DNA of 64,000 bases, taken from contig JARHYK010000001.1 in NCBI GenBank assembly GCA_029258515.1, forward strand, positions 68,450 to 132,449, in the 5' to 3' direction. Source of the DNA: Clostridia bacterium. Lineage in GTDB: Bacteria; Bacillota; Clostridia; TANB77; CAG-508. The notes below the pieces were generated by a model. The model was given only the letters and a program-made list of their open reading frames with translations. It was not told the origin of the DNA and did not search any database. Below, piece after piece: positions 16,439-37,748 of this stretch. How positions within the stretch are numbered: position 1 is the first letter of the stretch; each line of letters opens with the position of its first letter. A program made the translations under genes and the position numbers.

Positions 16439-17071
16439 TTAATTTCGATTTAACTTAATTATATTTCCACTTTTTTCAATAACTCCATCATCCTTTAAGA
16501 GTTTTAATTCTCTCATCATTGCACTTCTATCAATGCTTAGATAATCAGCTAAGTCTGTTAAAGAAAGAGGAAGTTCAAAGGTAGTATTTAAATTTCTAGT
16601 AGAGATTAAAGAAAAATATTCTAATAGCTTATCTCTAATAGATCTTTTAGTAAGTAATTCTATTCTAGTATTAAGTTCAGTAACTTTATTTAATATTAAT
16701 TTCGGAAGCTTTTCTGACAAATTTTGATGAAATTTACAATTGTTTTTACATTTTTGAAATGTTTCGTCATAAATATAGAAGAGAACTTCACAATTAGATC
16801 TTGCTTCGACTAATAATTCATTATTAATAGTTATATTATAAAAAACTTCACCAAATAGAGAATTTTTTGAGAAATGTTGCACTATAGTTCTATTTCCGTT
16901 TAAATCATATCTTACTAAATCAGCTGTTCCAGATACTAATATACATAATTGATTGCGCTTTTGAATGTAAGAGGTAATTGTTTCATTCTTTGAAAAAGAT
17001 TTTACTTGAACTTTGTTACATTTTGTAGAAAAATCATAGATGAAATCTTCTATGCTAAAACTAGTATTCAT
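16439..17071 (-). CDS. Crp/Fnr family transcriptional regulator
   Basis: cNMP-binding beta-barrel plus a C-terminal HTH (LSLTDLADYLSIDRSAMMRELKLLKDDGVI). Start ATG at 17071 with RBS AAAGGAGTGG. The listed 317-aa ORF is an unsupported N-terminal extension. Confidence 0.8.
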   Translation of the reverse strand: MNTSFSIEDFIYDFSTKCNKVQVKSFSKNETITSYIQKRNQLCILVSGTADLVRYDLNGNRTIVQHFSKNSLFGEVFYNITINNELLVEARSNCEVLFYIYDETFQKCKNNCKFHQNLSEKLPKLILNKVTELNTRIELLTKRSIRDKLLEYFSLISTRNLNTTFELPLSLTDLADYLSIDRSAMMRELKLLKDDGVIEKSGNIIKLNRN

Positions 17072-17145
17072 GAACACCACTCCTTTATTATATATAAACA
17101 TTATACAGTAAAAAAAGATAAAAAACAATAAAATGTTGAAAATAT

Positions 17146-17189
17146 CATTGTAACATAATTGTAATATTTTTGTAACACAATTGTAATAT
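17146..17189 (+). repeat. 4 x 11-bp tandem direct repeat (cATTGTAACAt / aATTGTAATAt) in the crp-nrdD divergent intergenic region
   Basis: Copies start at 17146, 17157, 17168 and 17179 with exact 11-bp periodicity. The reverse complement ATATTACAATT is identical to the repeat unit at 26445..26477. Confidence 0.7.
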
Positions 17190-17311
17190 AGCTCAAAACC
17201 CATCAAAATATAGTGATATAGAAAATGATAAATAATTTGTTGCTTTTGCAACAGAAAAACTATAAATTTGATATATAATATGAATATACTTTTTAAGGGA
17301 GGAAATGTAAA

Positions 17312-19438
17312 ATGAAAGTTATTAAAAGAGATGGAAGAGCTGTAGATTATGATAGGGCAAAAATTCAAGTGGCAATTGAAAAAGCAAATCAAGAAGTAAA
17401 ACCTAGAGAAAGAGCATCAAAGGAAGAAATAAAAAGAATTATTCAAACTATAGAAGAGATGAATAAAAAAAGAATGCTAGTAGAAGATATACAAGATATT
17501 ATAGAAGAAAAGTTAATGGAAATAGAAAAATATGAATTAGCTAAAAAATATATAGTATATAGATATACAAGAGCATTAGTAAGAAAACAAAATACGACTG
17601 ATGAAACAATATTAGGAATAATAAGAAATGATAATAAAGAACTAGCAGAAGAAAATTCTAATAAAAACACAATGCTTGCATCAACACAAAGAGATTATAT
17701 AGCAGGTGAAGTGTCTAGAGATTTAACAAAAAGATTATTGTTGCCTGAAAAAATAGCAAAAGCCGATGCAGAAGGAATTTTACATTTTCACGATGCGGAT
17801 TATTTTGTACAACCAATATTTAATTGTTGCTTAGTAAATATTGAAGATATGCTAGATAATGGAACTGTAATGAATGGAAAAATGATAGAAAGTCCAAAAA
17901 GTTTTCAAGTTGCTTGTACAGTAACAACACAAGTTATTGCAGCAGTGGCAAGTAATCAATATGGAGGACAATCAGTAGATTTAATTCATTTAGGAAAATA
18001 TTTAAGAAAAAGTTATGAAAAATTCAAAAAAGAAATTGAACAAAAATATAAAGAAAAATTGTCAAAAGAAACAATAGAAGATTTGGTTCAAGATAGATTA
18101 AAAACTGAATTAAAAGCTGGAGTACAAACTATTCAATATCAAATAAATACATTAATGACAACAAATGGACAATCTCCATTCGTAACATTATTTTTACACT
18201 TAGAAGAAAATGACCCATATATAAAAGAAAATGCAATGATAATAGAAGAAGTATTAAGACAAAGATATGAGGGAATAAAAAATGAAGCAGGAATATATGT
18301 AACACCAGCATTTCCAAAACTTGTATATGTTTTAGATGAATTCAATAGTTTAAAAGGCGGAGAATATGATTATTTAACAAAACTTGCAGTTAAATGTTCA
18401 GCTAAAAGAATGTATCCAGATTATATATCAGCTAAAAAAATGAAAGAAAATTATGAAGGAAATGTATTTAGCCCAATGGGATGTAGAAGTTTCTTATCTC
18501 CATGGAAAGATGAAAATGGCGAATATAAATTTGAAGGAAGATTCAACCAAGGAGTGGTAAGTATTAATTTACCACAAGTAGCAATAATTGCAGATGGAGA
18601 TGAAAAAAAATTCTGGGATTTATTAGAAGAAAGATTAGAATTATGTAAGGAAGCTTTAATGTGTAGACATTATGCATTGTTAGGGACACATTCAGATATA
18701 AGTCCAATTCATTGGCAATATGGCGCAATAGCACGCCTTAAAAAAGGTGAAAAAATAGATAAATTGTTATATGGAGGATATTCTACGATGTCATTAGGCT
18801 ATATAGGAATATATGAAACGACAAAGTTAATGACAGGAGTATCTCATACAGATCCAAAAGGACATGAATTTGCAATAAGAATAATGAAATGTTTAAGAAA
18901 AGCAACAGATAAATGGAAAGAAGAAACAAATATTGGATTTGCATTATATGGAACACCAGCAGAAAGTCTATGCTATAAATTTGCAAGAATTGATAAAGAA
19001 AAATTTGGAACAATTAAAGATGTAACTGATAAAGGATATTATACAAATTCTTATCACGTAGATGTTAGAGAAAAAATAGATGCATTTGAAAAGTTATCAT
19101 TCGAAAGTGAGTTCCAAAAAATATCATCAGGTGGAGCTATATCATATATAGAAATACCAAATATGCAAAACAATATAGAAGCCTTAGAAACAGCAGTGAA
19201 GTTTATTTATGATAATATACAATATGCAGAATTTAATACAAAATCAGATTTTTGCCATGAGTGTGGATTTGATGGAGAAATTATAATAAATAAAGATAAT
19301 GAATGGGAATGCCCAAACTGTGGAAATAAAGATCGTTCAAAAATGACGGTAGTAAGAAGAACATGTGGATATTTAGGAGAAAATTTTTGGAATGCAGGAA
19401 AAACTAAAGAAATAAAACAAAGAGTAATGCATTTGTAG
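17312..19438 (+). CDS. nrdD: Anaerobic ribonucleoside-triphosphate reductase (class III RNR)
   Basis: ATP-cone N-terminus. Glycyl-radical C-terminus RTCGYLG. Zn ribbon CxxC...CxxC. Confidence 0.95.
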   Translation: MKVIKRDGRAVDYDRAKIQVAIEKANQEVKPRERASKEEIKRIIQTIEEMNKKRMLVEDIQDIIEEKLMEIEKYELAKKYIVYRYTRALVRKQNTTDETILGIIRNDNKELAEENSNKNTMLASTQRDYIAGEVSRDLTKRLLLPEKIAKADAEGILHFHDADYFVQPIFNCCLVNIEDMLDNGTVMNGKMIESPKSFQVACTVTTQVIAAVASNQYGGQSVDLIHLGKYLRKSYEKFKKEIEQKYKEKLSKETIEDLVQDRLKTELKAGVQTIQYQINTLMTTNGQSPFVTLFLHLEENDPYIKENAMIIEEVLRQRYEGIKNEAGIYVTPAFPKLVYVLDEFNSLKGGEYDYLTKLAVKCSAKRMYPDYISAKKMKENYEGNVFSPMGCRSFLSPWKDENGEYKFEGRFNQGVVSINLPQVAIIADGDEKKFWDLLEERLELCKEALMCRHYALLGTHSDISPIHWQYGAIARLKKGEKIDKLLYGGYSTMSLGYIGIYETTKLMTGVSHTDPKGHEFAIRIMKCLRKATDKWKEETNIGFALYGTPAESLCYKFARIDKEKFGTIKDVTDKGYYTNSYHVDVREKIDAFEKLSFESEFQKISSGGAISYIEIPNMQNNIEALETAVKFIYDNIQYAEFNTKSDFCHECGFDGEIIINKDNEWECPNCGNKDRSKMTVVRRTCGYLGENFWNAGKTKEIKQRVMHL

Positions 19439-19478
19439 AAAGAAGTATCTCCTCTTTCTACAACGAAAGGAGCAAGTT

Positions 19479-20003
19479 ATGAATTATGCAGATATAAAAA
19501 AAGTAGATGTCGCAAATGGTGAAGGAGTAAGAGTATCAGTTTTTGTTAGTGGGTGTAATCATCATTGTAAAGGATGTTTTAATCAATGCGCTTGGGATTT
19601 TAATTATGGAAATAAATTTACAGATGAAGAAATTGATAAAGTTATAAATTATCTTGACCATGATTATATATCAGGACTTTCATTATTAGGAGGAGAACCA
19701 CTTGAAAAACAAAACCAAGAAGGATTACTACCACTTGTAAAAAAAGTAAAAGAAAAATTTCCAAATAAAAACATATGGTGTTATACAGGATTTGATTTTG
19801 AAAAAGATGTAGTAGGAAAGATGGCATCAAACAATGAAACAACAAAAGAATTATTAAAATATTTAGATGTTGTAGTTGATGGGAAATTTGAAGAAGATAA
19901 AAAAGACTTAAAGCTTAAATTCAGAGGTTCATCAAATCAAAGAATATTGGACGTTCAAGAGACTTTGAAAGAAAATCAACTTGTAAATTATACTTTGAGA
20001 TAA
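19479..20003 (+). CDS. nrdG: Anaerobic RNR activating protein (radical SAM)
   Basis: CNHHCKGC radical-SAM cluster motif. 174 aa. Directly downstream of nrdD. Confidence 0.9.
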   Translation: MNYADIKKVDVANGEGVRVSVFVSGCNHHCKGCFNQCAWDFNYGNKFTDEEIDKVINYLDHDYISGLSLLGGEPLEKQNQEGLLPLVKKVKEKFPNKNIWCYTGFDFEKDVVGKMASNNETTKELLKYLDVVVDGKFEEDKKDLKLKFRGSSNQRILDVQETLKENQLVNYTLR

Positions 20004-20180
20004 ACTAATTATCAAGTAAAAATATAGGAAAACATAGCGTGATTTGTAAACTTAAAAAAAGAAATAGAAAAAATTTTAGATGAAATTGAATTATCAAAAA
20101 AGATAAGAATAAAGTTGAAGCATGCTGTTTAAATAAACAAGCAACAGTTTTAATTTATAACCTGAAAGCAAAAGACTTTA

Positions 20181-20208
20181 AAAAAGCACTTTATCAAAAG
20201 TGCTTTTT
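20181..20208 (+). terminator. Rho-independent terminator after nrdDG
   Basis: aaaagcactt-tatca-aagtgctttt plus a T-run. Confidence 0.6.
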
Positions 20209-20289
20209 GTGCTAGAAAGGATTACAATATAAATTGCTAGTCGAAAAATATAAAAAATAACAATATGAGTTAGATTAGGTAACAAGCTA

Positions 20290-20790
20290 TTTGATAAAAA
20301 CAGTGAATGGGAAGCTGTAGTATATTTATGTTATAGTCAGTATGAAAATAAAAGTTATTGGTATGATTTATATAAAGGACAAGGAACTAAAACGAAACAG
20401 ACGAAGGAGCGTATAATAGAACAGATAATAGTCATGATCAGAATACTGAAAATGGAAATTTAAATTGGAAATATGAAAGTTTATGGGATATATATGAAGT
20501 AAGTGAAGAAGAAAAAACAAATAAAATAAAACTAAAAGATGGAACAATATTAACTCAAAATGAATTATGGGACTGGAATAAGAGAGAAGAAAAACATCAT
20601 GAAGCAAGGTTAAGGAAGACAGAGGCAAATTACAACAATATGAAAAAACATAAAGGAATAGGAGTAAACGAAGTAAGAACAACATTTTTATTTTATGCAC
20701 AATATTCATCAGGAACAGAAAAACAATAGTCAATTATGGGAATGGTTTATTAAAGCAGTAAAATCTATTTACAAAAATTAAATATAAAGA
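20290..20790 (+). pseudogene. Degraded partial copy of the FGE-like gene (20869..22587), with internal deletions and frameshifts
   Basis: Nucleotide blocks match 21745..21940 and 22110..22340 of the intact gene (e.g. gaatgggaagctgtagtatatttatgttatag, ...ggactggaataagagagaagaaaaacatcatgaagca...aacaatatgaaaaaacataaaggaataggagtaaa). Reading frame broken. Confidence 0.55.
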
Positions 20791-20868
20791 TATAATCAAT
20801 ATGATAAATATTGATACTTTATAAAATAAAAAATAATCAATAAAAAGCAAAAGAAAGGAAAGATAAAG

Positions 20869-22587
20869 ATGTTAAAAAAGTACAAAAGTGAAAAAGGTAT
20901 AACATTAATAGCATTAGTGATAACAATAATAGTATTGCTAATACTAGCTGGAGTAGCAATAGCAAGTCTAACAGGTGATAATGGAATAATAACAAAAGCA
21001 CAAGAAGCAAAGAAAAAAACAGAAGAAGCAAAGAAAGAAGAAGAAAAACAGTTACAAAACATGCTAGATAAAATAACAAGTGAAGTGCCATCAGAAGAAG
21101 GATATAACAATAATAAAAATGTAAATAATCCAAAAACAACCAAAGGAATGATCCTAATAAAATGGAACGGAACAGATTGGGTAGTGTGTTCAAAAGATGA
21201 CACAGAATGGTATAGTTATGATAGTACAAAAAAATGGGCAAATATAATGTTAAGTGATGGAAAATATAAAGAAGGAAAAGTAAGAGAAGGACAAATAATA
21301 AAAGAAAATGAACTAGGAAGTATGTATGTGTGGATACCAAGATATGCATATAAAATAGCAGGAGAAAAGAATATAGAAGTAACATTTTTAAAAGGAAATA
21401 CAAATATAGATAAAGAAGGAATTGAATATACAACAAGTGAAGATGTAGATACAAAAACAACAAAAATAGTACACCCGGCATTTAATTTAGGAGGAGTAGA
21501 ATTAAGTGGAATATGGGTAGCAAAATTTGAAACAAGTGGAACAAACAAAGATGGAAAAGCAGTAGGAAATGCAAGTAGCACTTCATCAGCTGAACAATAT
21601 AAACCAGATGAAACAACAATAGCAAAAAGCTTGCCAAATAAAATAAGTTGGAGACATATAACAGTAGGAGAAAGTCAAAGAAGAAGTATGGATATAGCTA
21701 CAACAGCAAAAGAAAAATATGGTTTAGATTATACAAATAGTCATTTAATGAAAAATGATGAATGGGGAGCAGTAGCATATTTATGTTACAGCCAATATGG
21801 AAATGTGCCAAAAATAAATAGTGTAGGAAATTATAATAGTTATTGGTATGATTTATATACGGGTCAAGGACCAAAAACAGCAACAGATGAAGGTTGGTAT
21901 AATAGAACAGACAATAGTCATGATTACAATACTGAAAATGGAATATTAGCAAGTACAACAGGAAATATAACGGGAATATACGATATGAGTGGAGGTTCAT
22001 GGGAAAGAGTAGCAGGATATTTAGATAATGGAAATAGTAACTTAAACAATTATGGGAAAAGTGCAGATGGAAGTATAAAATATTTTGAAAATGGAAAATT
22101 GAATCCAAACTATGAAAAATTATGGAATAAATATGAAGTAAGTGAAGAAGAAAGAACAAATAAAATATCAATGGGAGATGGAACAACATTAACTCAAAAC
22201 GAATTGTGGGATTGGAATAAAAGAGAAGAAAAGCATCAAAAAGCAAGATTAAGAATAACAGAAGAGATATACAATAATATGAAAAAACATAAAGGGATAG
22301 GAGTAAATGAAGTAGGAACAACATTTTCGTTTTATGCTCCGTATGGAGATGGAAAAAATGGACAACCATGGGGATGGTTCAGAACAGTAGCACAAGCAGT
22401 AGTAGGAAAAGAAGAATATGGAAGAGCATGGAACAATGATTTAGTGCTAATAGGTCATATCGTCTGTCCGTTTGTGCTGCGTGGTAGCTATTGCAATAAT
22501 GGTACTGATGCAGGTGTACTGTGCTCAAATATTACTAGTGGTTTGAGTTACGATCGCTACGGGTTTCGCTCAGTATTGGTAATTTAG
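20869..22587 (+). CDS. Type-IV-pilin-like (class III signal peptide) N-terminus fused to a C-terminal FGE-sulfatase/SUMF1-like (C-type-lectin-fold) domain; putative modular minor pilin
   Basis: N-terminus KGITLIALVITIIVLLILAGVAIASLTGDNGII is near-identical to the pilA N-termini at 29548 and 30042. FGE-like motifs NDEWGAVAY, GIYDMSGGSWE and C-terminal RGSYC...YGFRSV. RBS AAAGGAAAG. Confidence 0.75.
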   Translation: MLKKYKSEKGITLIALVITIIVLLILAGVAIASLTGDNGIITKAQEAKKKTEEAKKEEEKQLQNMLDKITSEVPSEEGYNNNKNVNNPKTTKGMILIKWNGTDWVVCSKDDTEWYSYDSTKKWANIMLSDGKYKEGKVREGQIIKENELGSMYVWIPRYAYKIAGEKNIEVTFLKGNTNIDKEGIEYTTSEDVDTKTTKIVHPAFNLGGVELSGIWVAKFETSGTNKDGKAVGNASSTSSAEQYKPDETTIAKSLPNKISWRHITVGESQRRSMDIATTAKEKYGLDYTNSHLMKNDEWGAVAYLCYSQYGNVPKINSVGNYNSYWYDLYTGQGPKTATDEGWYNRTDNSHDYNTENGILASTTGNITGIYDMSGGSWERVAGYLDNGNSNLNNYGKSADGSIKYFENGKLNPNYEKLWNKYEVSEEERTNKISMGDGTTLTQNELWDWNKREEKHQKARLRITEEIYNNMKKHKGIGVNEVGTTFSFYAPYGDGKNGQPWGWFRTVAQAVVGKEEYGRAWNNDLVLIGHIVCPFVLRGSYCNNGTDAGVLCSNITSGLSYDRYGFRSVLVI

Positions 22588-22705
22588 TACTTAGAAAGTG
22601 AATTGAATCTTAGATACATTTTGTAAACATAAATTATGTATTGAATAAGAAAAAATGAAGTTTCTATAGATAGAATAATTAATATAGAGTCAATCCAAAA
22701 GGACA

Positions 22706-22741
22706 AAAAGCAAGTTAAAATTTTAACTTGCTTTTTTGCTT
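22706..22741. terminator. Bidirectional rho-independent terminator between the convergent FGE-pilin gene and spoVAE
   Basis: Perfect 15-bp palindrome aaaagcaagttaaaa/ttttaacttgctttt flanked by A- and T-runs. Confidence 0.7.
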
Positions 22742-22746
22742 ATAAT

Positions 22747-23139
22747 TCACTGCTTTTTTATTTTAGGTTTAGAAATCAAAGAAGCAATATATCCAAAGAA
22801 AATAGCAGCAGCAATTCCACCAGCAGAGGCTTTAACACCACCAATAAAAGCACCAACAATACCAAATTGTTTAACACCTTCAATAGCGCCTTTGGCTAAA
22901 TTATATCCAAACCCAGTTAAAGGAACAGTAGCACCACAACCTGCAAAATTGACCAAATGCTCATAAATTCCTAAACCACCTAAAATGACACCAGTGGTAA
23001 CAAAAGCTACTAAAATTCTAGCAGGAGTAAGTTTAGTTTTATCAATTAAAATTTGTCCAATTATACAAATAAGACCACCAACAACAAAACTTTTTAGTAA
23101 AGACCACCAATCAAAAACTTCTATCCAATTAATATTCAT
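22747..23139 (-). CDS. spoVAE: Stage V sporulation protein AE (SpoVAEb-type)
   Basis: 130-aa membrane protein. GCGATVPLTGFG / GGIAAAIFFG motifs. Last gene of the spoVA tricistron. Confidence 0.8.
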   Translation of the reverse strand: MNINWIEVFDWWSLLKSFVVGGLICIIGQILIDKTKLTPARILVAFVTTGVILGGLGIYEHLVNFAGCGATVPLTGFGYNLAKGAIEGVKQFGIVGAFIGGVKASAGGIAAAIFFGYIASLISKPKIKKQ

Positions 23140-23160
23140 AAAAAATAAGCTCCTTTCAAA

Positions 23161-24171
23161 TTAAATTTCAATACTTATAGCGTGGGCAATACTAGGAATA
23201 CTTTCACCTTGCTGCGAAGTAGTAGAATTCATCAAAGCACCAGTAGCAATAAGCAATATTTTCTTGATATTTTTATTTTTCAGTTCTTTAAACAAATATC
23301 CAGAAAAAACAGAAGCACAACAACCGCAACCACTACCTCCAGCATGAGTATCTTGTGAATTTTTATCAAAAATTAAAACACCACAGTCATTATAATTAGC
23401 TTTAATATCATAACCTTGTGACTTCAAAATATCAATAGAAATATCTTTACCAATATAACCTAAATCTCCACTAATAATAGCATCATAATAGCTAGGATTT
23501 CTACCAGTATCTAAAAAATGAGCAAGCAGTGTATCAGCAAAGGCAGGAGCCATAGCAGAACCCATATTACTAGCATCTTTAATCCCCATGTCAATAATTT
23601 TACCAGGAGTAATAGAAGTAATAAAAGGACCTTGACCTGATTTAGAAACAATGGCAGAACCAGCACCAGTAACAGTCCATTGAGCAGAAGGAGATCTTTG
23701 GTTACCTAATTCCAAAGGAAAACGAAATTGCTTTTCTGCACTACAAAAATGACTAGAAGTAGCACACAAAACATTTTCAGCAAAACTTTCAGCTAAAATA
23801 GCGGCTAAACTCATAGATTCAACAAAAGTAGAACAAGCACCAAAAACTCCAAAAAAAGGAATATTTAATCCACGAAGTCCAAAACCAGAAGAAATACATT
23901 GATTAAGTAAATCACCAGAAAAACAACAATCAATTTTATTTACTGGTATACCAGACTTAGAAATAGCAATATTAACAGTTTCTTTTAAAATTTTACTTTC
24001 AGCTTTTTCCCAACTTTTTTCACCCCAAAATTCATCTTCTAAAGTTTGGTCAAAAAATTTTGCTAAAGGGCCTTGAGCCTCTTTAGGACCTACAATACTA
24101 GCACATTCTGAAATTGTGGGTGGATTATCAAACAAAATAGTTTGCTTACCAACTTTTTTCAAAAAAATCAT
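23161..24171 (-). CDS. spoVAD: Stage V sporulation protein AD
   Basis: 336 aa with a thiolase/KAS-like fold (GGSGCGCCAS). Between spoVAC and spoVAE. Confidence 0.9.
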   Translation of the reverse strand: MIFLKKVGKQTILFDNPPTISECASIVGPKEAQGPLAKFFDQTLEDEFWGEKSWEKAESKILKETVNIAISKSGIPVNKIDCCFSGDLLNQCISSGFGLRGLNIPFFGVFGACSTFVESMSLAAILAESFAENVLCATSSHFCSAEKQFRFPLELGNQRSPSAQWTVTGAGSAIVSKSGQGPFITSITPGKIIDMGIKDASNMGSAMAPAFADTLLAHFLDTGRNPSYYDAIISGDLGYIGKDISIDILKSQGYDIKANYNDCGVLIFDKNSQDTHAGGSGCGCCASVFSGYLFKELKNKNIKKILLIATGALMNSTTSQQGESIPSIAHAISIEI

Positions 24172-24213
24172 CTCCTATCTTAATCCTTTTTGTAAATCAA
24201 GCAAAAAAGATTA

Positions 24214-24693
24214 TTAAACTAATGTAATATTTTGAGTATTAAAAATTAAATAAATTAGACCTACAATAATAGATGTAGATATACCAAAAACAAGAACAGG
24301 ACCAGAAACGGTAAACATTTTACCTCCAACTCCCATAATATATCCTTCAGACTTATATTCTATTGCAGGAGAAACTATTGAATTAGCAAATCCAGTAATA
24401 GGAACAAGGGAACCTGCACCAGCAAATTTACCAATTTTATTAAAAATATTAAGACCTGTTAAAAAAGCAGAAAGGCCTATTAAAATAATAGAAACAATGG
24501 TTCCAGAAGTAGAAACATCTAATCCTCGAACTTGACAAATATTAAAAATAATTTGACCAATAGTACAAATCAAACCACCAACCCAAAAAGCATTAAAACA
24601 ATTTTTGAAAATAGGAGAATTAGGTGATTTTTTATTAACATATTCTTGATATTTTTCTTTACTTTCCATGGGATTGATAGAATTCATATTCAT
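24214..24693 (-). CDS. spoVAC: Stage V sporulation protein AC
   Basis: 159-aa four-TM protein. FWVGGLICTIGQ...GAGSLVPITGFANS motifs. Confidence 0.9.
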   Translation of the reverse strand: MNMNSINPMESKEKYQEYVNKKSPNSPIFKNCFNAFWVGGLICTIGQIIFNICQVRGLDVSTSGTIVSIILIGLSAFLTGLNIFNKIGKFAGAGSLVPITGFANSIVSPAIEYKSEGYIMGVGGKMFTVSGPVLVFGISTSIIVGLIYLIFNTQNITLV

Positions 24694-24935
24694 TAAAAAT
24701 CACCCTTTCCATTATCGTTACTTTTATTTCTATTTAAATCAACAATAAAACTAATATCTAAATCAACAAAATAATCACAAATCTTATTTCCATCAATTTT
24801 AGCATATTGCTTTAAAATAGTAACATTAGACAGATAATCAATAGTCTTGGAAGTTTCGTAAATAGCTTTAACAATAGCATCCTTCCAAGAAACACTAGAA
24901 TTACCTGTAATAATCAAATGTTTTTCAATTTCCAT
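24693..24935 (-). CDS. Dodecin-like small protein (80 aa), translationally coupled to spoVAC
   Basis: MEIEKHLIITGNSSVSWKDAIVKAIYETSKTIDYLSNVTILKQYAKIDGNKICDYFVDLDISF aligns to the dodecin fold pattern (TGTSxxSxxxAxxxA...V...V.F..D). GGAGG RBS 6-7 nt upstream of ATG 24935. Its stop TAA overlaps the spoVAC ATG (TAATG). The listed ORF start at 24995 is an unsupported extension. Confidence 0.55.
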   Translation of the reverse strand: MEIEKHLIITGNSSVSWKDAIVKAIYETSKTIDYLSNVTILKQYAKIDGNKICDYFVDLDISFIVDLNRNKSNDNGKGDF

Positions 24936-24964
24936 AAATAAATACCTCCAAAATAATTTATTAG

Positions 24965-24993
24965 TATTTTTGCCACTTCTTGAAAAAATATAC
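24965..24993 (-). promoter_or_regulatory. Putative forespore sigma-F/sigma-G type promoter for the dodecin-spoVAC-AD-AE operon
   Basis: Minus-strand reading GTATA - 14 nt - GGCAAAAATA (matches GHATR / GGnnAnAnTA-like -10), about 30 nt upstream of the RBS. Confidence 0.35.
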
Positions 24994-25101
24994 ATTTTAA
25001 ATTAGATTTTAATTTACAATTAAAAAATTAAATGATAAAATACATATAAAAAAGAGATTCTTTTTTAAAGTGTAACAAAAAAGGTCAAGAAAGGAAAAAA
25101 G

Positions 25102-26415
25102 ATGATTGATAAACCTAGAGAAATAGCTTTGAAAATATTATATAAAATAGATAAAGAAAAAGGATATTCAAATATAGTATTAAATGAATATATTAACGAA
25201 AACAAAGACAAACTAACAAATAAGGATATTGGATTAATTTCAGAAATTGTTTATGGAGTAACAAACTGGAAGCTTACACTAGACGAAATAATTAAAAAAT
25301 ATTCTAAAATTAAAATTAAAAAAATTTCTAGTTGGATTTTAAATATTTTAAGAATGGGAATTTATCAAATAATTTTTTTAGACAAAATTCCAAAATCAGC
25401 AGCTGTTAATGAAAGTGTAAATTTAGCAAAAAGATATGGACATAAATCAAGTAGTAATTTCGTAAATGCTATCTTAAGAAAAATCGAGTATGAAGACTAT
25501 GAAGGATTTTTTGATATTAAAGATGATATACAAAGAATATCAAAAACAACTTCCACGCCTGAATGGATTGTAGAAGAATTAAAAAAAGATAGAGAAAATA
25601 TTGATGAAGTAGAAAATATATGCAAAGAATTAAATAAAAGACCTAAAACAGTAATAAGAAGAAACAATCTTAAAATATCAAAACAAAATTTTGAAGAAAT
25701 ATTAAAAGATAAAAAATACAAATTTGAGAATAGTAAAATAAATGAAGATTTTTATGTCGTAGATAAAATAAAAAAAATAGAAGATATGGAAGAATTTAAA
25801 AAAGGTTATTTTACTGTTCAAGACATATCTGCAGGATTATCAGCATTTTTATTAGAACCAAAAGAAAATGAAAAAATATTAGATGCATGTTCAGCGCCAG
25901 GAGGAAAAACTACATATTTAGCAGAGATTATGAACAATAATGGATATATTGAAGCATGGGATATTCATAAATCGCGTACAAATTTAATAGAAGAAAATGC
26001 AAAAAGATTAGGGATAACAATAATAAAAACGAAAATAATGGATGCTACAATTTACGATGAAAATAAAAAAGAAAAATTTGATAAAATTTTATTAGATGTA
26101 CCATGCTTAGGAATAGGTGTAATAAAAAGAAAACCAGATATTAAATGGCAAAGAAAAAATGAAGATATAGAACAAATAAGCAATATACAACAAAAAATAC
26201 TTGAAACATGCTCAAAATATCTAAAAAAAGGTGGGGAAATGATATATTCAACTTGTAGCATACTGAAAGAAGAAAACGAAAAAAATATATATAAGTTTTT
26301 GGAAAAAAATAAAAATTTTGAATTAGAGAAGATTAAAAATGAAAAATTTTTAGAAATTTTACCGAATGAATTGCAAGATGGATTTTTTATTGCTAAATTA
26401 GAAAAAAAAGAGTAA
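25102..26415 (+). CDS. rsmB: 16S rRNA (cytosine967-C5)-methyltransferase RsmB/Sun
   Basis: NusB-like N-terminus. SAM MTase motifs DACSAPGGKT ... PCLGIG ... STCS. Confidence 0.85.
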   Translation: MIDKPREIALKILYKIDKEKGYSNIVLNEYINENKDKLTNKDIGLISEIVYGVTNWKLTLDEIIKKYSKIKIKKISSWILNILRMGIYQIIFLDKIPKSAAVNESVNLAKRYGHKSSSNFVNAILRKIEYEDYEGFFDIKDDIQRISKTTSTPEWIVEELKKDRENIDEVENICKELNKRPKTVIRRNNLKISKQNFEEILKDKKYKFENSKINEDFYVVDKIKKIEDMEEFKKGYFTVQDISAGLSAFLLEPKENEKILDACSAPGGKTTYLAEIMNNNGYIEAWDIHKSRTNLIEENAKRLGITIIKTKIMDATIYDENKKEKFDKILLDVPCLGIGVIKRKPDIKWQRKNEDIEQISNIQQKILETCSKYLKKGGEMIYSTCSILKEENEKNIYKFLEKNKNFELEKIKNEKFLEILPNELQDGFFIAKLEKKE

Positions 26416-26444
26416 AAAAAAGAAAAATAAATCAAAAAAATGCA

Positions 26445-26477
26445 ATATTACAATTATATTACAATTATATTACAATT
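26445..26477 (+). repeat. 3 x perfect 11-bp tandem repeat ATATTACAATT upstream of the pilus operon
   Basis: atattacaatt atattacaatt atattacaatt, about 145 bp upstream of the pilM start. Same unit as 17146..17189 in the opposite orientation. Confidence 0.75.
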
Positions 26478-26620
26478 AAATTAAAACCCTTGACTTTTTG
26501 CTAAAAAAAGATAAAATTGAAGAGAGGAAATAGTATAAATTTCTAATTAAAGAAATATAAGAAAGTATTATTTTAAGCAAATTGCAAATGATATAAATAT
26601 AAAGAAAAAGGAGTAAAAAA

Positions 26621-28267
26621 ATGCCAAGCTGTCTAGGATTATATATAGAAAACAACTTAATAAAATATGCAAAAGTTTCAAAGGAAAAAGATGTAAAAAA
26701 AGTTGAAACTTATGGTGTAAAATTTTATACAAAGCTAGAAGATGGAATAAAACAAATAATAGATGAAACATATAGTTATAAAATACCAATTTGTATAAAT
26801 TTAACAAAGGAAACATATAACTATTTTGATATGTTTGCGTTATTAAAGAAAACAGACCTAGAAAAGGCAATAAAAACAGAATTTGACTCTTTTTGTACAG
26901 ATAAAGGATTTAATTCAAATGCACTAGAAGGAAGATATGCAGTAGTAGAAAAATTAAATGATAAAGAAAGATTAAAAGTAATATATATATCTACAAATAA
27001 AATAGAATTAAATAAAAAAGTTCAAATGTTTGAAGAATATAATTTGACTAATGTAGTACCATTGCCAATAGCGATAACAACACTATTAGATGAAGAAGAA
27101 ACTAGCAAAGAAAACTCAATAATAGTAAATATAGAAGAAAAAACAACACTTACAACAATAATAAATAGAAAAATATATAATGTTAAAGTATTAGATGAAG
27201 GAAGCGAAAAATTCTTAAGCAATATAAATTTAAAAGAAAATTCATATTCAAAAGCATATGAGATGTGTAAAGAAACAACTATATATACATCAGAAGGAAG
27301 AGAACTGGGAAATATAGAAACAGGATATTTAGAAGATATAATGCCTACATTATATTCGATAGTTGGACAAGTTCAAAAAACATTAAATGAAAATATGGAA
27401 AAAATTTCGAAAATATATATATCAGGAACAGCAGCATTAATAAATAATATTGATTTATATTTCCAAGAATATTTAGAGGGAATAAAATGTGAAATATTAA
27501 AACCTAATTTCATTAAAAAATCTCCAAACATAAATATAAAAGACTATATTGAGGTAAATTCAGCAATATCATTAGGTTTAATGGGCTTAGGAGAAGGCTT
27601 AAATGAAATGAATTTTAAAGCAAAATCATTTAGAAACACAATAAAATCACTGCTAACAGCAGAGATTGTACCAAATAAAAATAAAAAAATTAATAATAAA
27701 GTAACAAAAAATAAAAAGTCAATTAATTTTAAAATAAATAATGATTTGAAAATGCCATTAGATAGTACAGAAAAAATATTATTAAATGTTTTAGCAACTT
27801 TAATTATAATGTTTGTAGTATTTAGCGGATTTTCAACAATGCTGAAAAAACAATTTGAAAAGAAAATATCAGAAACAGAAGCAACTATTACAAGTACAAA
27901 ACAAGAAATACAAATGATAGAACAAGACAGTAGCAACATAAAACAGCAAAAAGATATATATACAAGTTATATAGAAGAATTAAGCAAAACAACACAAATA
28001 GCAGAAGAAAAAAACAAAGTTAAAGGTGCAATACCAGGACTATTAAATCAACTTATGAATATTATTCCAAAAGGTGTTCAAATTAAATCAATAGAAAACT
28101 TAAATGGTGGAAAAGTTGAAATATTAGTTCAATCAAAGCAATATGAACAAATAGCGTTCTTTATAGGAAGTATAAAAACAGATGTAATATTAACAGAGGT
28201 AATTTCGACATCAGGACAAAAAAATAATGATATAATCACTGTAAAAATAGAAGGAGTGTTACCATGA
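26621..28267 (+). CDS. pilM: Type IV pilus assembly protein PilM (actin-like ATPase fold) fused to a PilN-like TM/coiled-coil C-terminal region
   Basis: N-terminus LGLYIENNLIKYAKV... PilM-like. After residue ~370 comes a single TM (ILLNVLATLIIMFVVFSGF) and a coiled-coil periplasmic part, as in PilN. 548 aa. Confidence 0.7.
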   Translation: MPSCLGLYIENNLIKYAKVSKEKDVKKVETYGVKFYTKLEDGIKQIIDETYSYKIPICINLTKETYNYFDMFALLKKTDLEKAIKTEFDSFCTDKGFNSNALEGRYAVVEKLNDKERLKVIYISTNKIELNKKVQMFEEYNLTNVVPLPIAITTLLDEEETSKENSIIVNIEEKTTLTTIINRKIYNVKVLDEGSEKFLSNINLKENSYSKAYEMCKETTIYTSEGRELGNIETGYLEDIMPTLYSIVGQVQKTLNENMEKISKIYISGTAALINNIDLYFQEYLEGIKCEILKPNFIKKSPNINIKDYIEVNSAISLGLMGLGEGLNEMNFKAKSFRNTIKSLLTAEIVPNKNKKINNKVTKNKKSINFKINNDLKMPLDSTEKILLNVLATLIIMFVVFSGFSTMLKKQFEKKISETEATITSTKQEIQMIEQDSSNIKQQKDIYTSYIEELSKTTQIAEEKNKVKGAIPGLLNQLMNIIPKGVQIKSIENLNGGKVEILVQSKQYEQIAFFIGSIKTDVILTEVISTSGQKNNDIITVKIEGVLP

Positions 28268-29001
28268 AAAAACTATTAATTAGTCTTGCAATTGCTTTAG
28301 TTTTAATTCTAACGTCTTTAACAATAGTTAAAGGTATACATGTTGGGAATTTACCAATACTAGGAATAAAACAAATAAAAGAAGAAAATGCCAAACTAGA
28401 AAATAAAATAAAAGAAGCAACAACATTAGTAAGTGTATCATATCCACAAAAATTACAAAATTTAGACAATAACTTGAAAGAAATGAAAAATGAAAAACAA
28501 AAATATGAAGATATGATGACAACAGGCAATCAAAGTGAAATAAAATCAACAATCCAAGAACAAGTATATACAATAGATAAGTTATGGGAAAAATTAGGAA
28601 TGCTTGCAAGATATGAAGGATTAAATGCAACTTTTGAACCAATGCCAGGCACAAGAATGCCGATAAAAAGAAATAATGAACAACCAGATTATAATTATTA
28701 TGATATAAAATTCACTTTACAAGGTGGATATCCAAATATTTCTTTATATATAGCTGACATCGAAAATAATTCACAATTAGGCTTTAGAATTGATAATTTT
28801 AAAATGGTACCAGATGAGAAAAATGTCCAAGCAACATTTACTTGTAAAGATATAGCAATAAAAGGAGTATCAAATGATAAAATACTACTAGAAGAAGATA
28901 AAAATAAAGAACAACAACAAAAAAATGATGATATGCCAGATGATACACAAAAAAATACAACTACAATGCCTGAAACAACTAATGAAGGTATGGTACCATA
29001 A
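28264..29001 (+). CDS. pilO: PilO-like pilus assembly protein (N-terminal TM plus coiled coil)
   Basis: Start overlaps the pilM stop (ATGA). TM ISLAIALVLILTSLTIV then coiled coil. Its position in the operon matches PilO. Confidence 0.55.
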   Translation: MKKLLISLAIALVLILTSLTIVKGIHVGNLPILGIKQIKEENAKLENKIKEATTLVSVSYPQKLQNLDNNLKEMKNEKQKYEDMMTTGNQSEIKSTIQEQVYTIDKLWEKLGMLARYEGLNATFEPMPGTRMPIKRNNEQPDYNYYDIKFTLQGGYPNISLYIADIENNSQLGFRIDNFKMVPDEKNVQATFTCKDIAIKGVSNDKILLEEDKNKEQQQKNDDMPDDTQKNTTTMPETTNEGMVP

Positions 29002-29025
29002 AATAAAAGAAAAGGAGTTATTAAA

Positions 29026-29469
29026 ATGACTAAAAATATTTTAAAAGAAATAATAATCATTTTATTATTAACTTTAGCAATAATACTTTTGATAGGAGTA
29101 TTACTATATGATTATGTACCAATGAATAAAGTAATACCAGAAAAAGTAAAATATACAGCAAGTGAAGAAGTAAAACAAATATCAACAGAATTAAATGAAA
29201 AAAAAGAAGAAATACCAATAACATCATATACAGTAACTTCAACAGATTTAAACGACTATAAAAAAGTAAAAGAATATATTCCAGGAAGAAAAAATCCGTT
29301 TGGCACAATAGAAGAACAAGTAGAAAATAATAAAGAGACATCAGGGCAAGGAGAAACAACAAATGCAACAACAAATACAACAACAAATACAACAACAAAT
29401 AAAAAAAATAACAATACTACTAACAACAAAGAAACAACAAATTATTGGCCAGACAAACAAATAAAATAG
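29026..29469 (+). CDS. Pilus-operon membrane-anchored protein with a Thr/Asn-rich repeat tail (PilP-like position)
   Basis: N-terminal TM. (TTNTTTN)n low-complexity C-terminus. RBS AAAGGAG. Confidence 0.4.
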   Translation: MTKNILKEIIIILLLTLAIILLIGVLLYDYVPMNKVIPEKVKYTASEEVKQISTELNEKKEEIPITSYTVTSTDLNDYKKVKEYIPGRKNPFGTIEEQVENNKETSGQGETTNATTNTTTNTTTNKKNNNTTNNKETTNYWPDKQIK

Positions 29470-29547
29470 ATTTTATAATTATCTTTATATGAAATAAAAA
29501 TATAAAGATATCACAAATAAAATATGCAAAAGAAAAGGGGTGAAAAT

Positions 29548-30015
29548 ATGAAAAATAATCAAAAAGGTATTACACTTGTAGCACTAGTAATAACAATTAT
29601 AGTATTATTAATTTTAGCAGGTGTAACAATAGCAGCATTATCAGGAGATAATGGCATATTAAAAAGAGGGAAAGAATCAAAAGTACAAACAAATATTGCA
29701 AATGCGAAAGATTTAATAAGTTTAGAAGTTTCAGAACATATAACAACATTTTATAATGAAAAATATGTAGTCAATGCTTCAAGTGATGCAGATCTTTCAA
29801 CAGCAGGAGAAAATATAGGTTGGTTTGTAGGATTAAAAATGCAAAAATCTAAAGCAGCAGGAAATGGACAAGCAAGCAATGTAATAAAAACAGTAACTCC
29901 AGGAGCATCAACAAAAATTGAAACAAATGTAAAAGATGCAAATGGTGCAGCTTTAACAGCAACATTAGATAGCAATGGAAAAATCACATGGGCAGGAGAT
30001 GTTATGCAAAAATAG
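29548..30015 (+). CDS. pilA: Type IV major pilin (prepilin with class III signal peptide), copy 1
   Basis: MKNNQKG|ITLVALVITIIVLLILAGVTIAALSGDNGIL. RBS GGGGTG. The likely start is 29548, not the listed 29524. Confidence 0.8.
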   Translation: MKNNQKGITLVALVITIIVLLILAGVTIAALSGDNGILKRGKESKVQTNIANAKDLISLEVSEHITTFYNEKYVVNASSDADLSTAGENIGWFVGLKMQKSKAAGNGQASNVIKTVTPGASTKIETNVKDANGAALTATLDSNGKITWAGDVMQK

Positions 30016-30041
30016 TAAAAATATAATAGGAGGAAAATAAA

Positions 30042-30527
30042 ATGAAAAATAATCAAAAAGGTATTACACTTGTAGCATTAGTAATAACAATTATAGTATT
30101 ATTAATTTTAGCAGGTGTAACAATAGCAGCATTATCAGGAGATAATGGTATATTAAAAAGAGGAAAAGAAGCAAAAGTACAAACAAATGTAGCTAATGCA
30201 AAAGATTTAATCAGTTTGGAAGTTTCAGAAAATATAACAACATTTTACAACGAAAAATATGTAGTTGATAATTCAAAAGACGCAAATCTTACAACAGCAG
30301 GTGAAAACATGGGATGGTACGTAGCATTAAAAATGCAAGCTTCTAAAACAGCAGGAAATGGACAAGCAAGTAGCGTAATAGCTTCAATTACTCCAGCTAG
30401 TACAGCAGAAGGAACAAGTGTAATTACATCAAATGTAAAAGATGCTAAAGGACAAACTTTAAAAGCAACACTTGATAAAAATGGAAAAATCACATGGTCA
30501 GGAGATGCTTTAACAAACGAACAATAA
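30042..30527 (+). CDS. pilA: Type IV major pilin, copy 2 (tandem paralog, ~75% identical)
   Basis: Identical N-terminal 45 aa to copy 1. Divergent C-terminal globular part. RBS AGGAGG. Confidence 0.8.
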   Translation: MKNNQKGITLVALVITIIVLLILAGVTIAALSGDNGILKRGKEAKVQTNVANAKDLISLEVSENITTFYNEKYVVDNSKDANLTTAGENMGWYVALKMQASKTAGNGQASSVIASITPASTAEGTSVITSNVKDAKGQTLKATLDKNGKITWSGDALTNEQ

Positions 30528-30552
30528 TATAAACTAGTATACTAAATTATAT

Positions 30553-30579
30553 AGGCATATGCATGAAATGTATATGCCT
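30553..30579 (+). terminator. Hairpin (attenuator or partial terminator) downstream of the pilin genes
   Basis: aggcatatgcat-gaa-atgtatatgcct stem-loop. Weak U-tail. Confidence 0.4.
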
Positions 30580-30617
30580 TAAATTATAAAAATATGATAA
30601 AGGAGAACAAGGGGAAA

Positions 30618-31433
30618 ATGGATATAATATTTTACATATTTATATTTGTAATAGGGATATTATTTGGAAGTTTTTATACATTATGCGTATATAGAATACC
30701 AAAAACAGAAGATATAACACATACACGTTCATATTGCCCAAACTGTGGACATAAATTAGGCTTTTTTGACCTAATACCAGTGTTTAGCTATATCTTTTTA
30801 GGAGGAAAATGTAGATATTGCAAAGAAAAAATAAGACCAAGATATTTTATATTAGAGTGCCTATCTGGATTATTTTTTGTGGTAATTGCATATTTAATGA
30901 ACTTCAATTTACAAAATCTAACAATAAATAGTATTATTAACTTTTCATTTACAGTCTTATACTTTACATTTATAATATTAATGTCAGGAATAGATAAAGA
31001 ATATAGAAAAATAGAAAAAAGTGTAACAATATATGGAATTATTATATCTATAATGTATATGGTATATCTATACATAGTAGAAAAAGTTAATATACATAGA
31101 TATGCTATATATCTTGTTTGCTATATCTTAATGTTAGCAGTAGATTCAATAACATTAAAAAAATCAGCAAAAGATTGTTACTTAAATGGAATAATATTTA
31201 CACTAATAGCAATGTCAGTGTTTACACAAGGTAAAACAGCTTTATTAACATTAATAATAGTAGGATTATCAATATTAATTTATATAGGAATAAAAAAAAT
31301 AAATATAAAAACAAAGAAGCAAAGAGTAGAAAAAATAAAAATAGGAAACAAACTGACATTAGGATATTGCTTAGGAATAGCAAATATTTGTGTACTAATA
31401 TCAACACTAATTATCAAAAAATTTTTAATATAA
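30618..31433 (+). CDS. pilD: Prepilin peptidase PilD (A24 family)
   Basis: CPNCGHKL...CRYCKEK zinc-binding N-terminal domain. Multi-TM. Start 30618 follows RBS AAAGGAG. Confidence 0.85.
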   Translation: MDIIFYIFIFVIGILFGSFYTLCVYRIPKTEDITHTRSYCPNCGHKLGFFDLIPVFSYIFLGGKCRYCKEKIRPRYFILECLSGLFFVVIAYLMNFNLQNLTINSIINFSFTVLYFTFIILMSGIDKEYRKIEKSVTIYGIIISIMYMVYLYIVEKVNIHRYAIYLVCYILMLAVDSITLKKSAKDCYLNGIIFTLIAMSVFTQGKTALLTLIIVGLSILIYIGIKKINIKTKKQRVEKIKIGNKLTLGYCLGIANICVLISTLIIKKFLI

Positions 31434-31444
31434 AGAAGGTTAAT

Positions 31445-31891
31445 ATGAATTTTAAAAGTGAAAAAGGAATAACAGGTATAGATATAACGCTATCCATAAT
31501 ATTAATAACGATATTTATAGGAATTTTAGTAACACTATCATTTAATATAGAAACAAAAGTAAAAGAAACAGGAAGAAATGCTGAAGCTTTATATTATGCA
31601 ATAAATTCAATAGAACAAGTAAAAGGCTTAAATTTTAACGATTTACCTAAAACTACAGATCAAGTAAATAATAAAATACCAAGCCTAGAAGATGGATATG
31701 TCAAAAATAATATAGGGAAAGAAACCCCATATTATAGAACAACAGAAGTTATAGACTACACTCAAATTCCAGAAAACCAACAAAAAAATGCACAGCCAGA
31801 TGTAGCGAAAAAAATAACAGTAACAATATCATATAAAGACAAAGAAAAAGACAAAAATATAAATTTATCAGTTGTAAAGGTTAAAGAATAA
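31445..31891 (+). CDS. Minor pilin-like protein
   Basis: MNFKSEKG|ITGIDITLSIILITIFIGILVTL class III signal-like N-terminus. RBS GAAGG. Confidence 0.6.
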   Translation: MNFKSEKGITGIDITLSIILITIFIGILVTLSFNIETKVKETGRNAEALYYAINSIEQVKGLNFNDLPKTTDQVNNKIPSLEDGYVKNNIGKETPYYRTTEVIDYTQIPENQQKNAQPDVAKKITVTISYKDKEKDKNINLSVVKVKE

Positions 31892-31904
31892 GAAGGGAGA
31901 AAAT

Positions 31905-32345
31905 ATGAAAAACGAAAGAGGTATAACAACATCATCAGTAATTATATATGTAATAGTTGTATTAGTAGTATTAGCAACACTAGCAACAATTTCAACATAT
32001 TTTCATAAGCAAATAGAAACAGCGATATTTAAAGAAAAAAGTGCCAAAAACTTTACAACATTTATGAGCTATTTTGCACAAGACATACAAGAAGAAGGAA
32101 ACGGAATAACAAATGATAACATAAAAAATCAAGAAACAGCTAAAATAAAATTTACCAATGGAAATCAATATAATTATTCACTAGAAAATAAAAGTATATA
32201 TAAAAATAATGTAAAAATAGCAGATGATGTAGAATATTGTTCTTTTACGATAGATACAAATATACCAAATAAAAAATCTATAACATTAAATTTTATATCA
32301 GAAAACTTTAACAAAAATATTACCTTTTATATCAAAGAAAAATAA
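31905..32345 (+). CDS. Minor pilin-like protein
   Basis: MKNERG|ITTSSVIIYVIVVLVVLATLA N-terminus. RBS GAAGGGAG. Confidence 0.55.
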   Translation: MKNERGITTSSVIIYVIVVLVVLATLATISTYFHKQIETAIFKEKSAKNFTTFMSYFAQDIQEEGNGITNDNIKNQETAKIKFTNGNQYNYSLENKSIYKNNVKIADDVEYCSFTIDTNIPNKKSITLNFISENFNKNITFYIKEK

Positions 32346-32428
32346 TACAAAATAACAAAAAAACAACAAAAAAAATAAAAATATAGTATAATATAAACGA
32401 ACAACACAAATGAAAGGAGCGAAAAATA

Positions 32429-34066: not shown

Positions 34067-34086
34067 ACAAAAGGGGAAGAGAAAAC

Positions 34087-35199: not shown

Positions 35200-35201
35200 T
35201 A

Positions 35202-37558: not shown

Positions 37559-37748
37559 AAGTATGTGAATTTTTTGTGAAATAAAAAAATATTTAAAATT
37601 AAAAAACTTGAAAAAATAAGCAAATAAGGAAAAAAAAAGAAGAAAAACCACAAAATAAATAGAAAAAAAGTATTGCAAAAAATGAAGATTATTGTTATTA
37701 TATATAAGAAATAAGATAACGTAATTAACCCCGAAAGGAATGTAATAA

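Follow-up and report, generated by a model that had tools for sequence, protein, structure and literature searches.

What kind of protein reads a short repeat that stands in phased rows before genes as different as those for type IV pili and for anaerobic ribonucleotide reduction? The question is raised by a stretch of 64,000 nucleotides (nt) from an uncultured Clostridia bacterium (contig JARHYK010000001.1, positions 68,450 to 132,449), referred to here as the window. It contains two tandem arrays of an 11-bp unit, one between a Crp/Fnr-family regulator gene and nrdDG and the other upstream of a type IV pilus operon. At both loci the arrays are conserved cis-elements with respect to their sequence, their phase and their distance to promoter elements. 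They probably serve as sites for one protein, for which a response regulator of the OmpR/PhoB family with a specificity like that of WalR/VicR is the best candidate. The arrays are located as follows:

17146..17189, plus strand: array 1, four hexamers, each followed by A, with an exact 11-bp period
26445..26485, minus strand: array 2, three perfect TGTAAT hexamers and a degenerate fourth one

Array 1 (17146 to 17189) reads cATTGTAACAt aATTGTAATAt tTTTGTAACAc aATTGTAATAt, its hexamers TGTAAC, TGTAAT, TGTAAC and TGTAAT starting at 17149, 17160, 17171 and 17182. It lies between the Crp/Fnr-family gene, which is on the minus strand, and nrdD/nrdG. Array 2 comprises three perfect copies of ATATTACAATT (26445-26477), in which TGTAAT is on the minus strand; on the plus strand ATTACA starts at 26447, 26458 and 26469. 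A degenerate fourth hexamer, ATTAAA (26480-26485), is separated by 4 nt from the -35 sequence TTGACT, and 143 nt lie between the end of the perfect copies and the start of the PilM/PilN fusion gene at 26621. The four tandem copies at 17146..17189 and the three perfect ones at 26445..26477 had already been reported by the first-pass annotation and were confirmed by the sequence and by Tandem Repeats Finder, which gave a period of 11 for both arrays.

All seven strong hexamers of the two arrays are TGTAAC or TGTAAT. Pairs of the type TGTAAY-N5-TGTAAY were found seven times in the window compared to 0.07 expected from shuffled sequences, none of which reached seven, and within the window the exact 11-mer is confined to the two arrays. 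When one mismatch was allowed, nine of 14 hexamer pairs were intergenic (1.8 expected), the intergenic regions making up 13% of the window. The conserved unit is not the whole 11-mer, since the spacers of relatives differ, but a sequence of 7-8 bp, TGTAAYA(T), that recurs at 11-bp phase.

The first locus has the following organisation, the promoters and start sites given here and below being consensus predictions:

16439..17071, minus strand: Crp/Fnr-family regulator gene (210 amino acids; Pfam cNMP_binding and HTH_Crp_2)
17100..17128, minus strand: putative promoter of the crp-like gene, -10 TATAAT at 17105..17100 and -35 TTGTTT at 17128..17123
17238..17253, no strand assigned: palindrome TGTTGC-TTTT-GCAACA (TGTTGCTTTTGCAACA), 16 bp, putative Crp/Fnr-like operator
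17274..17279, plus strand: putative nrdDG -10 region TATAAT, part of an ATATAAT block that is invariant in the alignment
17312-19438, plus strand: nrdD, class III ribonucleotide reductase (Pfam NRDD, Gly_radical and ATP-cone)
19479-20003, plus strand: nrdG, activase (Pfam Fer4_12/Radical_SAM)

Four related species (loci L016 and L019-L021) have retained the divergent arrangement of crp-like gene and nrdD, with Crp identities of 74-84% and different flanking genes. The number of phased hexamers in the intergenic region is four in the window, three in L016, L019 and L020, and two in L021. Between the species the spacers are unrelated, whereas hexamers and phase have been kept, and all but one of the 15 hexamers (14/15) have an A at position 7. 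Measured from the conserved crp -10 region, the first hexamer is 43 nt away in the window, in L016 and in L019, and 42 nt away in L021; L020 has a longer, rearranged intergenic region, and here the distance amounts to 30 or 85 nt. Compared to L016, the window contains exactly one additional 11-bp unit, while both flanking gaps (43 and 50 nt) are the same. Array 1 is located at about -56 to -94 relative to the crp-like gene and approximately 100-140 nt upstream of the putative nrdD start site.

In L021 the locus contains two nrdD paralogues in tandem (5306-9772). Upstream of the second nrdD resides a diverged copy of the crp-nrdD region which has kept two hexamers and the palindrome; its crp -10 region is decayed and no crp gene is adjacent. 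The same locus harbors a four-hexamer array on the minus strand (4400-4680), 14 nt upstream of TTGAAA-17-TAAAAT, followed by a small open reading frame (ORF) with a (CA)n run of about 17 units, counted by eye, and by the gene of a fibronectin-type-III surface protein that exceeds 1,445 amino acids. The run may serve as a phase-variation switch.

At the second locus the following features were identified:

25102-26415: RsmB gene (Pfam)
26490..26517, plus strand: putative pilMN promoter, TTGACT, 16 nt, TAAAAT
26621..36545, plus strand: type IV pilus operon with pilM/N fusion, pilO-like gene, pilins, prepilin peptidase, PilB, PilT and PilC (Pfam)
26621-28267, plus strand: PilM/PilN fusion gene, the first gene of the operon

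The synteny of the operon is kept in L012, L022-L024 and L033. We aligned ten pilMN loci, anchored on the -35 region, with PilMN identities of 38-100% (38-80% for the nine relatives). Two or three hexamers have been retained in all nine relatives, one of which (L012) carries the hexamer variant CGTAAT. The consensus is TATTACA-N4-TATTACA-N4-TATTACA, followed by a weak fourth box ttAAA, TTGACT, N16 and GATAAAAT. While the spacers vary freely, the -35 and -10 regions were kept in all ten loci, and the last strong hexamer is 15 nt away from the -35 region in eight of them, 14 nt in one and 26 nt (15+11) in another. With a start site placed about 7 nt downstream of the -10 region, the pilMN hexamers occupy positions of about -77 to -39. 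A further conserved block in the pilMN leader, gcaaatgatataaatataaag (26585-26612), is situated just before the ribosome-binding site and is shared by L022, L023 and L024. It gave no match in Rfam; a second promoter at this place or an element of the leader is possible. A riboswitch or other RNA was rejected, the whole window yielding only one tRNA in Rfam.

A third intergenic site was found elsewhere in the window:

56753..56769, minus strand: TGTAAT-N5-TGTAAT (ATTACA on the plus strand)

It is located 24 nt upstream of a near-consensus sequence TTGACT-17-TATAAT with TG (56794-56822), a putative promoter, which is followed by the gene (56888-58105) of a secreted protein of 405 amino acids with a cadherin-like domain. 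The regulator of the two arrays may also act on this pair as a third target. Another exact TGTAAT-N5-TGTAAT pair (33964-33980) falls within pilB, at its 3' end and about 100 nt short of pilT; the pilB genes of relatives lack it, and it is probably due to chance or to the coding sequence.

The suggestion that both loci share one DNA-binding regulator was thus strengthened, as hexamers and phase were kept while spacers diverged, and as a metagenome scan (see below) again landed at pilMN and nrdD. Comparative evidence also backs the proposal that pili and anaerobic dNTP (deoxynucleotide) synthesis may be co-regulated. A phase-variable copy number was not observed. Four samples of one relative species (L015-L018), admittedly a small number, have identical arrays, those of L001 and L014 are identical to the window, and the number of copies varies from species to species only (4, 3, 3, 3, 2).

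A head-to-tail period of 11 bp is a hallmark of the OmpR/PhoB family, whose sites in general are direct repeats with a period of 10-11 bp in the DNA upstream of promoters, frequently in multiples of two. The arrays are composed in this way, with four and with three plus one hexamers upstream of a putative -35 region. For WalR/VicR the consensus TGTWAH-N5-TGTWAH has been published (PMC4168254, PMC9210968), which in VicR of Streptococcus mutans was refined to a preference for TGTWAHA-N4; the footprinted gbpB site of this species is TGTAAT-N5-CGTAAT (PMC4168254). Every strong hexamer of our arrays agrees with TGTWAH, the spacers comprise 5 bp of variable sequence, and the 11-bp period is exact in the window and in all relatives. 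The A at position 7 is also present at pilMN, where TATTACA is the reverse complement of TGTAATA. Because the unit TGTAAYA-N4 equals the published consensus, we read the arrays as tandem sites of the OmpR/PhoB family. In Staphylococcus aureus, WalR sites upstream of the -35 region activate transcription, their orientation being irrelevant, and the WalR regulon extends to nucleotide and replication genes (PMC10746227). Since the pilMN hexamers lie directly upstream of the -35 region, this position rule suggests activation of the pilus operon. Applied to Clostridioides difficile, the consensus gave only 29 exact intergenic matches in the genome (PMC9210968).

To see where such arrays recur, metagenomes were scanned with the pattern TGTAAYA-N4-TGTAAYA-N4-TGTAAYA, which matched at least 120 loci. 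Of 120 matches listed, 115 were intergenic. PilMN was the neighbour in at least five loci (flanking genes clustered), with ATTACA always pointing to the gene at a distance of 99-150 nt from the start codon. NrdD also adjoined the array in at least five loci, including distant paralogues of 25-27% identity; two of the loci, L061 and L143, are nearly identical. In other lineages the hexamers are located upstream of nrdD itself. Among the matches listed, further low-GC neighbours were FtsA (at least twice), SepF and MreB, the array at MreB/TsaE (L137) belonging to a member of the clade with 90% identity to a window protein. Veg/YabG (at least three times), LemA, thiolase and surface proteins were also encountered among these matches. 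In eleven loci of Clostridium species, comprising 230 kb, no hexamer pairs were detected.

PstS was a neighbour at least three times among the matches listed, L031 and L092 being among the pstS loci. In L091 (7452-8565) an array of three TGTAACA units is located 60 nt upstream of a complete pstSCAB-phoU-response regulator operon, and in L097 (3565-7554) an array lies between a phosphate porin/pstS pair and a divergent OmpR-type regulator-kinase pair. Arrays of this type adjoin genes with Response_reg and Trans_reg_C domains in other taxa. Those of L091 and L097 are clearly textbook Pho boxes and sites of the OmpR/PhoB family. The pst/pho arrays of other organisms can be regarded as a positive control, demonstrating that regulators of this family use such arrays.

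Several observations weigh against the assignment to a WalR-like response regulator. The 64-kb window contains no response regulator gene. The distances between the hexamers and the putative -35 regions differ among the sites (15, 20 and 24 nt), and the orientation of the hexamers relative to nrdD is not constant (L064). As the scan pattern was taken from the arrays themselves and the recurrence counts are lower bounds, these counts do not represent a genome-wide regulon. Moreover, none of the peptidoglycan hydrolase genes of the window is preceded by a conserved box as expected for WalR. The pair TTTACA-N5-TTTACA (9233-9249), which on the minus strand corresponds exactly to the WalR consensus, resides 84 nt upstream of a muramidase gene (GH25 and LysM domains) and is missing in three relatives (L145-L147). 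The pair TGTGAA-N5-TGTGAA (37564-37580) combines the 11-bp period with another hexamer (chance expectation 0.02); some 170 nt downstream follow ftsE-ftsX and two genes for PcsB-like M23 peptidases. This pair is not conserved in L024, and a conserved box at ftsEX-pcsB was not found. A tblastn search with a Bacillus subtilis WalR query disclosed OmpR-type genes in unrelated Pho loci only, and in addition a receiver in L024. This receiver is encoded by a stand-alone ORF of 92 amino acids (5703-5981) between rplT and spoVA in a relative of the 'Clostridium sp. 27_14' type; it is 41% identical to WalR residues 4-88 and has no counterpart in the window.

Among the alternatives, a reader of the repeats from outside the OmpR/PhoB family, either an uncharacterised regulator or a nucleoid-associated protein of the clade, appears unlikely. 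Pili, a regulator of nrdD, surface proteins and cell-division genes would be an unusual regulon for one known response regulator, and the failed hydrolase test is also in line with a different kind of protein. On the other hand, the hexamer, the spacing and the A at position 7 match a footprinted response-regulator consensus (PMC4168254), and both the period and the use of the same arrays as bona fide PhoB-type sites elsewhere point to the OmpR/PhoB family. The motifs of other known binders were compared by eye; neither LytTR, Spo0A, CodY, DnaA, PerR nor Rex fits.

Another explanation remains within the family: the arrays could be Pho boxes, by which an orthologue of PhoP/PhoB turns on the pili and the regulator of nrdD under phosphate limitation. 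PhoP of B. subtilis reads TT(A/T/C)ACA repeats spaced at about 11 bp, of which there are usually four, the number also present in each window array. Identical arrays of three heptamers precede pstSCAB-phoU and a response regulator gene (L091) and pstS (L031, L092) and separate the phosphate porin from the regulator-kinase pair (L097). However, these Pho loci come from other organisms with GC contents of 0.31-0.47. Within the clade, neither the window nor the fetched loci include any pst or pho gene, so that none was seen to carry an array. The low-GC neighbours (ftsA, sepF, mreB and pili) do not have Pho-type functions either, and ATTACA agrees with TTHACA in only five of six positions, while TGTAAY agrees with TGTWAH in six of six. 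We regard phosphate control as quite improbable.

The first-pass annotation had favored the adjacent Crp/Fnr-like regulator, which by binding the direct repeats would co-regulate nrdDG and the pilus operon. The gene adjoins array 1, its pairing with nrdD is conserved, and TTGTAA resembles the half-site of some Crp/Fnr-family boxes. Nevertheless, this is now very unlikely. The dimeric Crp/Fnr proteins recognise inverted repeats, typically half-sites of about 5 bp which are 4-6 bp apart. The arrays lack this structure, consisting of direct repeats in even and odd numbers (2, 3, 4), and also occur at promoters of pilMN, ftsA, sepF, mreB and pstS where a crp-like gene is not nearby. The TGTTGCTTTTGCAACA palindrome does possess it. 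As the family reads inverted repeats and a separate conserved palindrome is available, and as the repeats fit the WalR/VicR consensus, we do not favor the Crp/Fnr-like protein as binder of the arrays.

The palindrome is a much better candidate for their operator. It is kept in all five species, its centre lying 27-28 nt before the invariant nrdD TATAAT, which corresponds to about -40.5/-41.5 of the putative nrdD promoter. Activators of the CRP/FNR type bind at about -41 in the class II position. The core GTTGC-N4-GCAAC has one exact occurrence in the window and is absent from the pilMN promoter. Among 147 loci the exact palindrome was found in crp-nrdD intergenic regions only, except for one match inside a pilus operon. 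It is present even in L064 and L088, where the Crp-like proteins share only about 35% identity, and the crp-nrdD region of L088 contains no hexamers at all. In L019 and L020 a second copy covers the crp -35 region, suggesting autoregulation. It is more likely that the Crp/Fnr-like protein binds this palindrome, its predicted operator, than the arrays.

The protein contains the cysteines C18, C43, C94, C108 and C112, the last two within KCKNNCKFH; an alignment revealed that all five are invariant in eight homologues of 70-84% identity. A weak NCBIfam match to YeiL was also obtained. A function as redox or Fe-S sensor is possible. The link to oxygen proposed earlier could exist only in an indirect way. 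The statement that the repeats are not an NrdR box stood the comparison: NrdR boxes are 16-bp palindromes (acaCwAtATaTwGtgt), usually two in tandem, and the array repeats are direct. A single NrdR-box look-alike, catCAAAATATAGTGa (17201-17216), situated between array 1 and the palindrome, was rejected as well, since it has not been conserved in L016.

That the arrays have no protein partner is hardly credible: slippage, perhaps yielding a phase-variable spacer, might have produced the perfect 11-mers at 26445-26477 and the one unit by which site 1 exceeds that of L016, and the look-alike ATTACA-18-TACAAT scores 9/12 in a promoter scan, but relatives have kept the hexamers and not the spacers, which excludes recent slippage products, four samples of one species have identical arrays, the -10-like bases (hexamer plus AT) are not conserved and the distance to the real -35 region is.

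From these data we infer the family and identity of the binder, the direction of regulation and a cascade through the Crp-like protein as follows. A winged-helix regulator of the OmpR/PhoB family would bind the phased TGTAAYA repeats as tandem head-to-tail dimers. This response regulator, most likely WalR-like with a PhoP-like protein as the main alternative, would activate the pilus operon via the four hexamers. Array 1 probably drives the crp-like gene, from whose -10 region it has a fixed distance of 43 nt; in some lineages the response regulator may act directly on nrdD. The Crp/Fnr-like protein would then control nrdDG via its own palindrome at about -41, in class II geometry and possibly with redox sensing. 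In a more far-reaching version, which we put forward tentatively and hold to be rather less probable than not, WalR itself, an essential regulator of the cell envelope, or a hitherto uncharacterised paralogue with the same specificity, has been rewired to drive directly the pili, surface adhesins and cell-division genes and, via a Cys-rich intermediary of the Crp/Fnr type, anaerobic dNTP synthesis. If true, this rewiring would couple envelope status, surface attachment and the supply of DNA precursors in one regulon, and would do so in a widespread clade of uncultured gut Clostridia with small genomes.

The clade is a distant one. The RsmB protein is at most 60% identical to that of the closest relative in the genome collection and about 40-45% identical to those of Clostridium species. 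Relatives are abundant in gut metagenomes, with contigs of up to 1.6-1.7 Mb. The window has a GC content of about 26% and carries spoVA genes. Between these and nrdG, outside the pilus operon, an ORF of 572 amino acids (20869-22587) was noticed whose N-terminus bears a faint prepilin methylation motif and which matched no other family. FeoB appears to be split into two ORFs (FeoB_N and Gate, 51533-52936; FeoB_C and Gate, 53031-53663); a frameshift or a pseudogene is conceivable, as is a genuine split. A hexamer pair with one mismatch (51356-51372) lies upstream of it.

To our knowledge, almost nothing has been reported on the control of type IV pili in Clostridia beyond cyclic di-GMP riboswitches, and for this uncultured clade, which is abundant in the gut, we know of no work on regulation. 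A conserved and recognisable operator provides a handle for predicting regulons straight from metagenomes. The operator described here ties pili both to cell-division or surface genes and to a redox-type regulator of the class III reductase. At nrdD two layers can be told apart, the response-regulator array and the Crp/Fnr palindrome. The assignment of the repeats to the neighbouring regulator was obvious and probably wrong, and is corrected herewith.

Compared with known systems, the arrays share with NrdR boxes the location upstream of an nrd operon and, beside array 1, an NrdR-like 16-mer; they differ in that their repeats are direct and that the NrdR-like box is single. FNR of Escherichia coli activates nrdDG, and class II sites of FNR and CRP resemble the crp-nrdD locus in so far as a Crp/Fnr-family gene with invariant cysteines is divergent from nrdDG and a palindrome of the 5-N4-5 type lies at about -41. 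This likeness concerns the palindrome and not the 11-bp repeats, and the half-site GTTGC differs from TTGAT (FNR) and TGTGA (CRP). With the Pho boxes of PhoB (E. coli) and PhoP (B. subtilis), the arrays have in common direct 11-bp repeats in a row, on the coding strand and upstream of or overlapping the -35 region, and TGTAAYA x3 also marks pst/pho operons in other metagenomic taxa. Unlike Pho boxes, they lack a linked phosphate gene in this clade, as far as the window and the fetched loci are concerned, and their hexamer fits TGTWAH better than TTHACA or CTGTCAT.

The closest similarity is to WalR/VicR sites, regarding the hexamer (6/6), the 5-bp spacer, the A at position 7 and the position upstream of the -35 region, from which WalR activates in S. 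aureus. The CGTAAT variant of the gbpB site recurs in the relative L012. The neighbours of the low-GC metagenome matches include the cell-division genes ftsA, sepF and mreB, and YycFG of B. subtilis is reported to control ftsAZ, according to the title of a study cited in PMC9210968. Differences are the three to four phased hexamers instead of one pair, the lack of a conserved box at the peptidoglycan hydrolase gene tested and the genes controlled, since neither a type IV pilus operon nor a Crp/Fnr-nrdD divergon is a known target of WalR. The direct-repeat operator of a response regulator is a known kind of element, of which the arrays are probably an instance in an unstudied clade.

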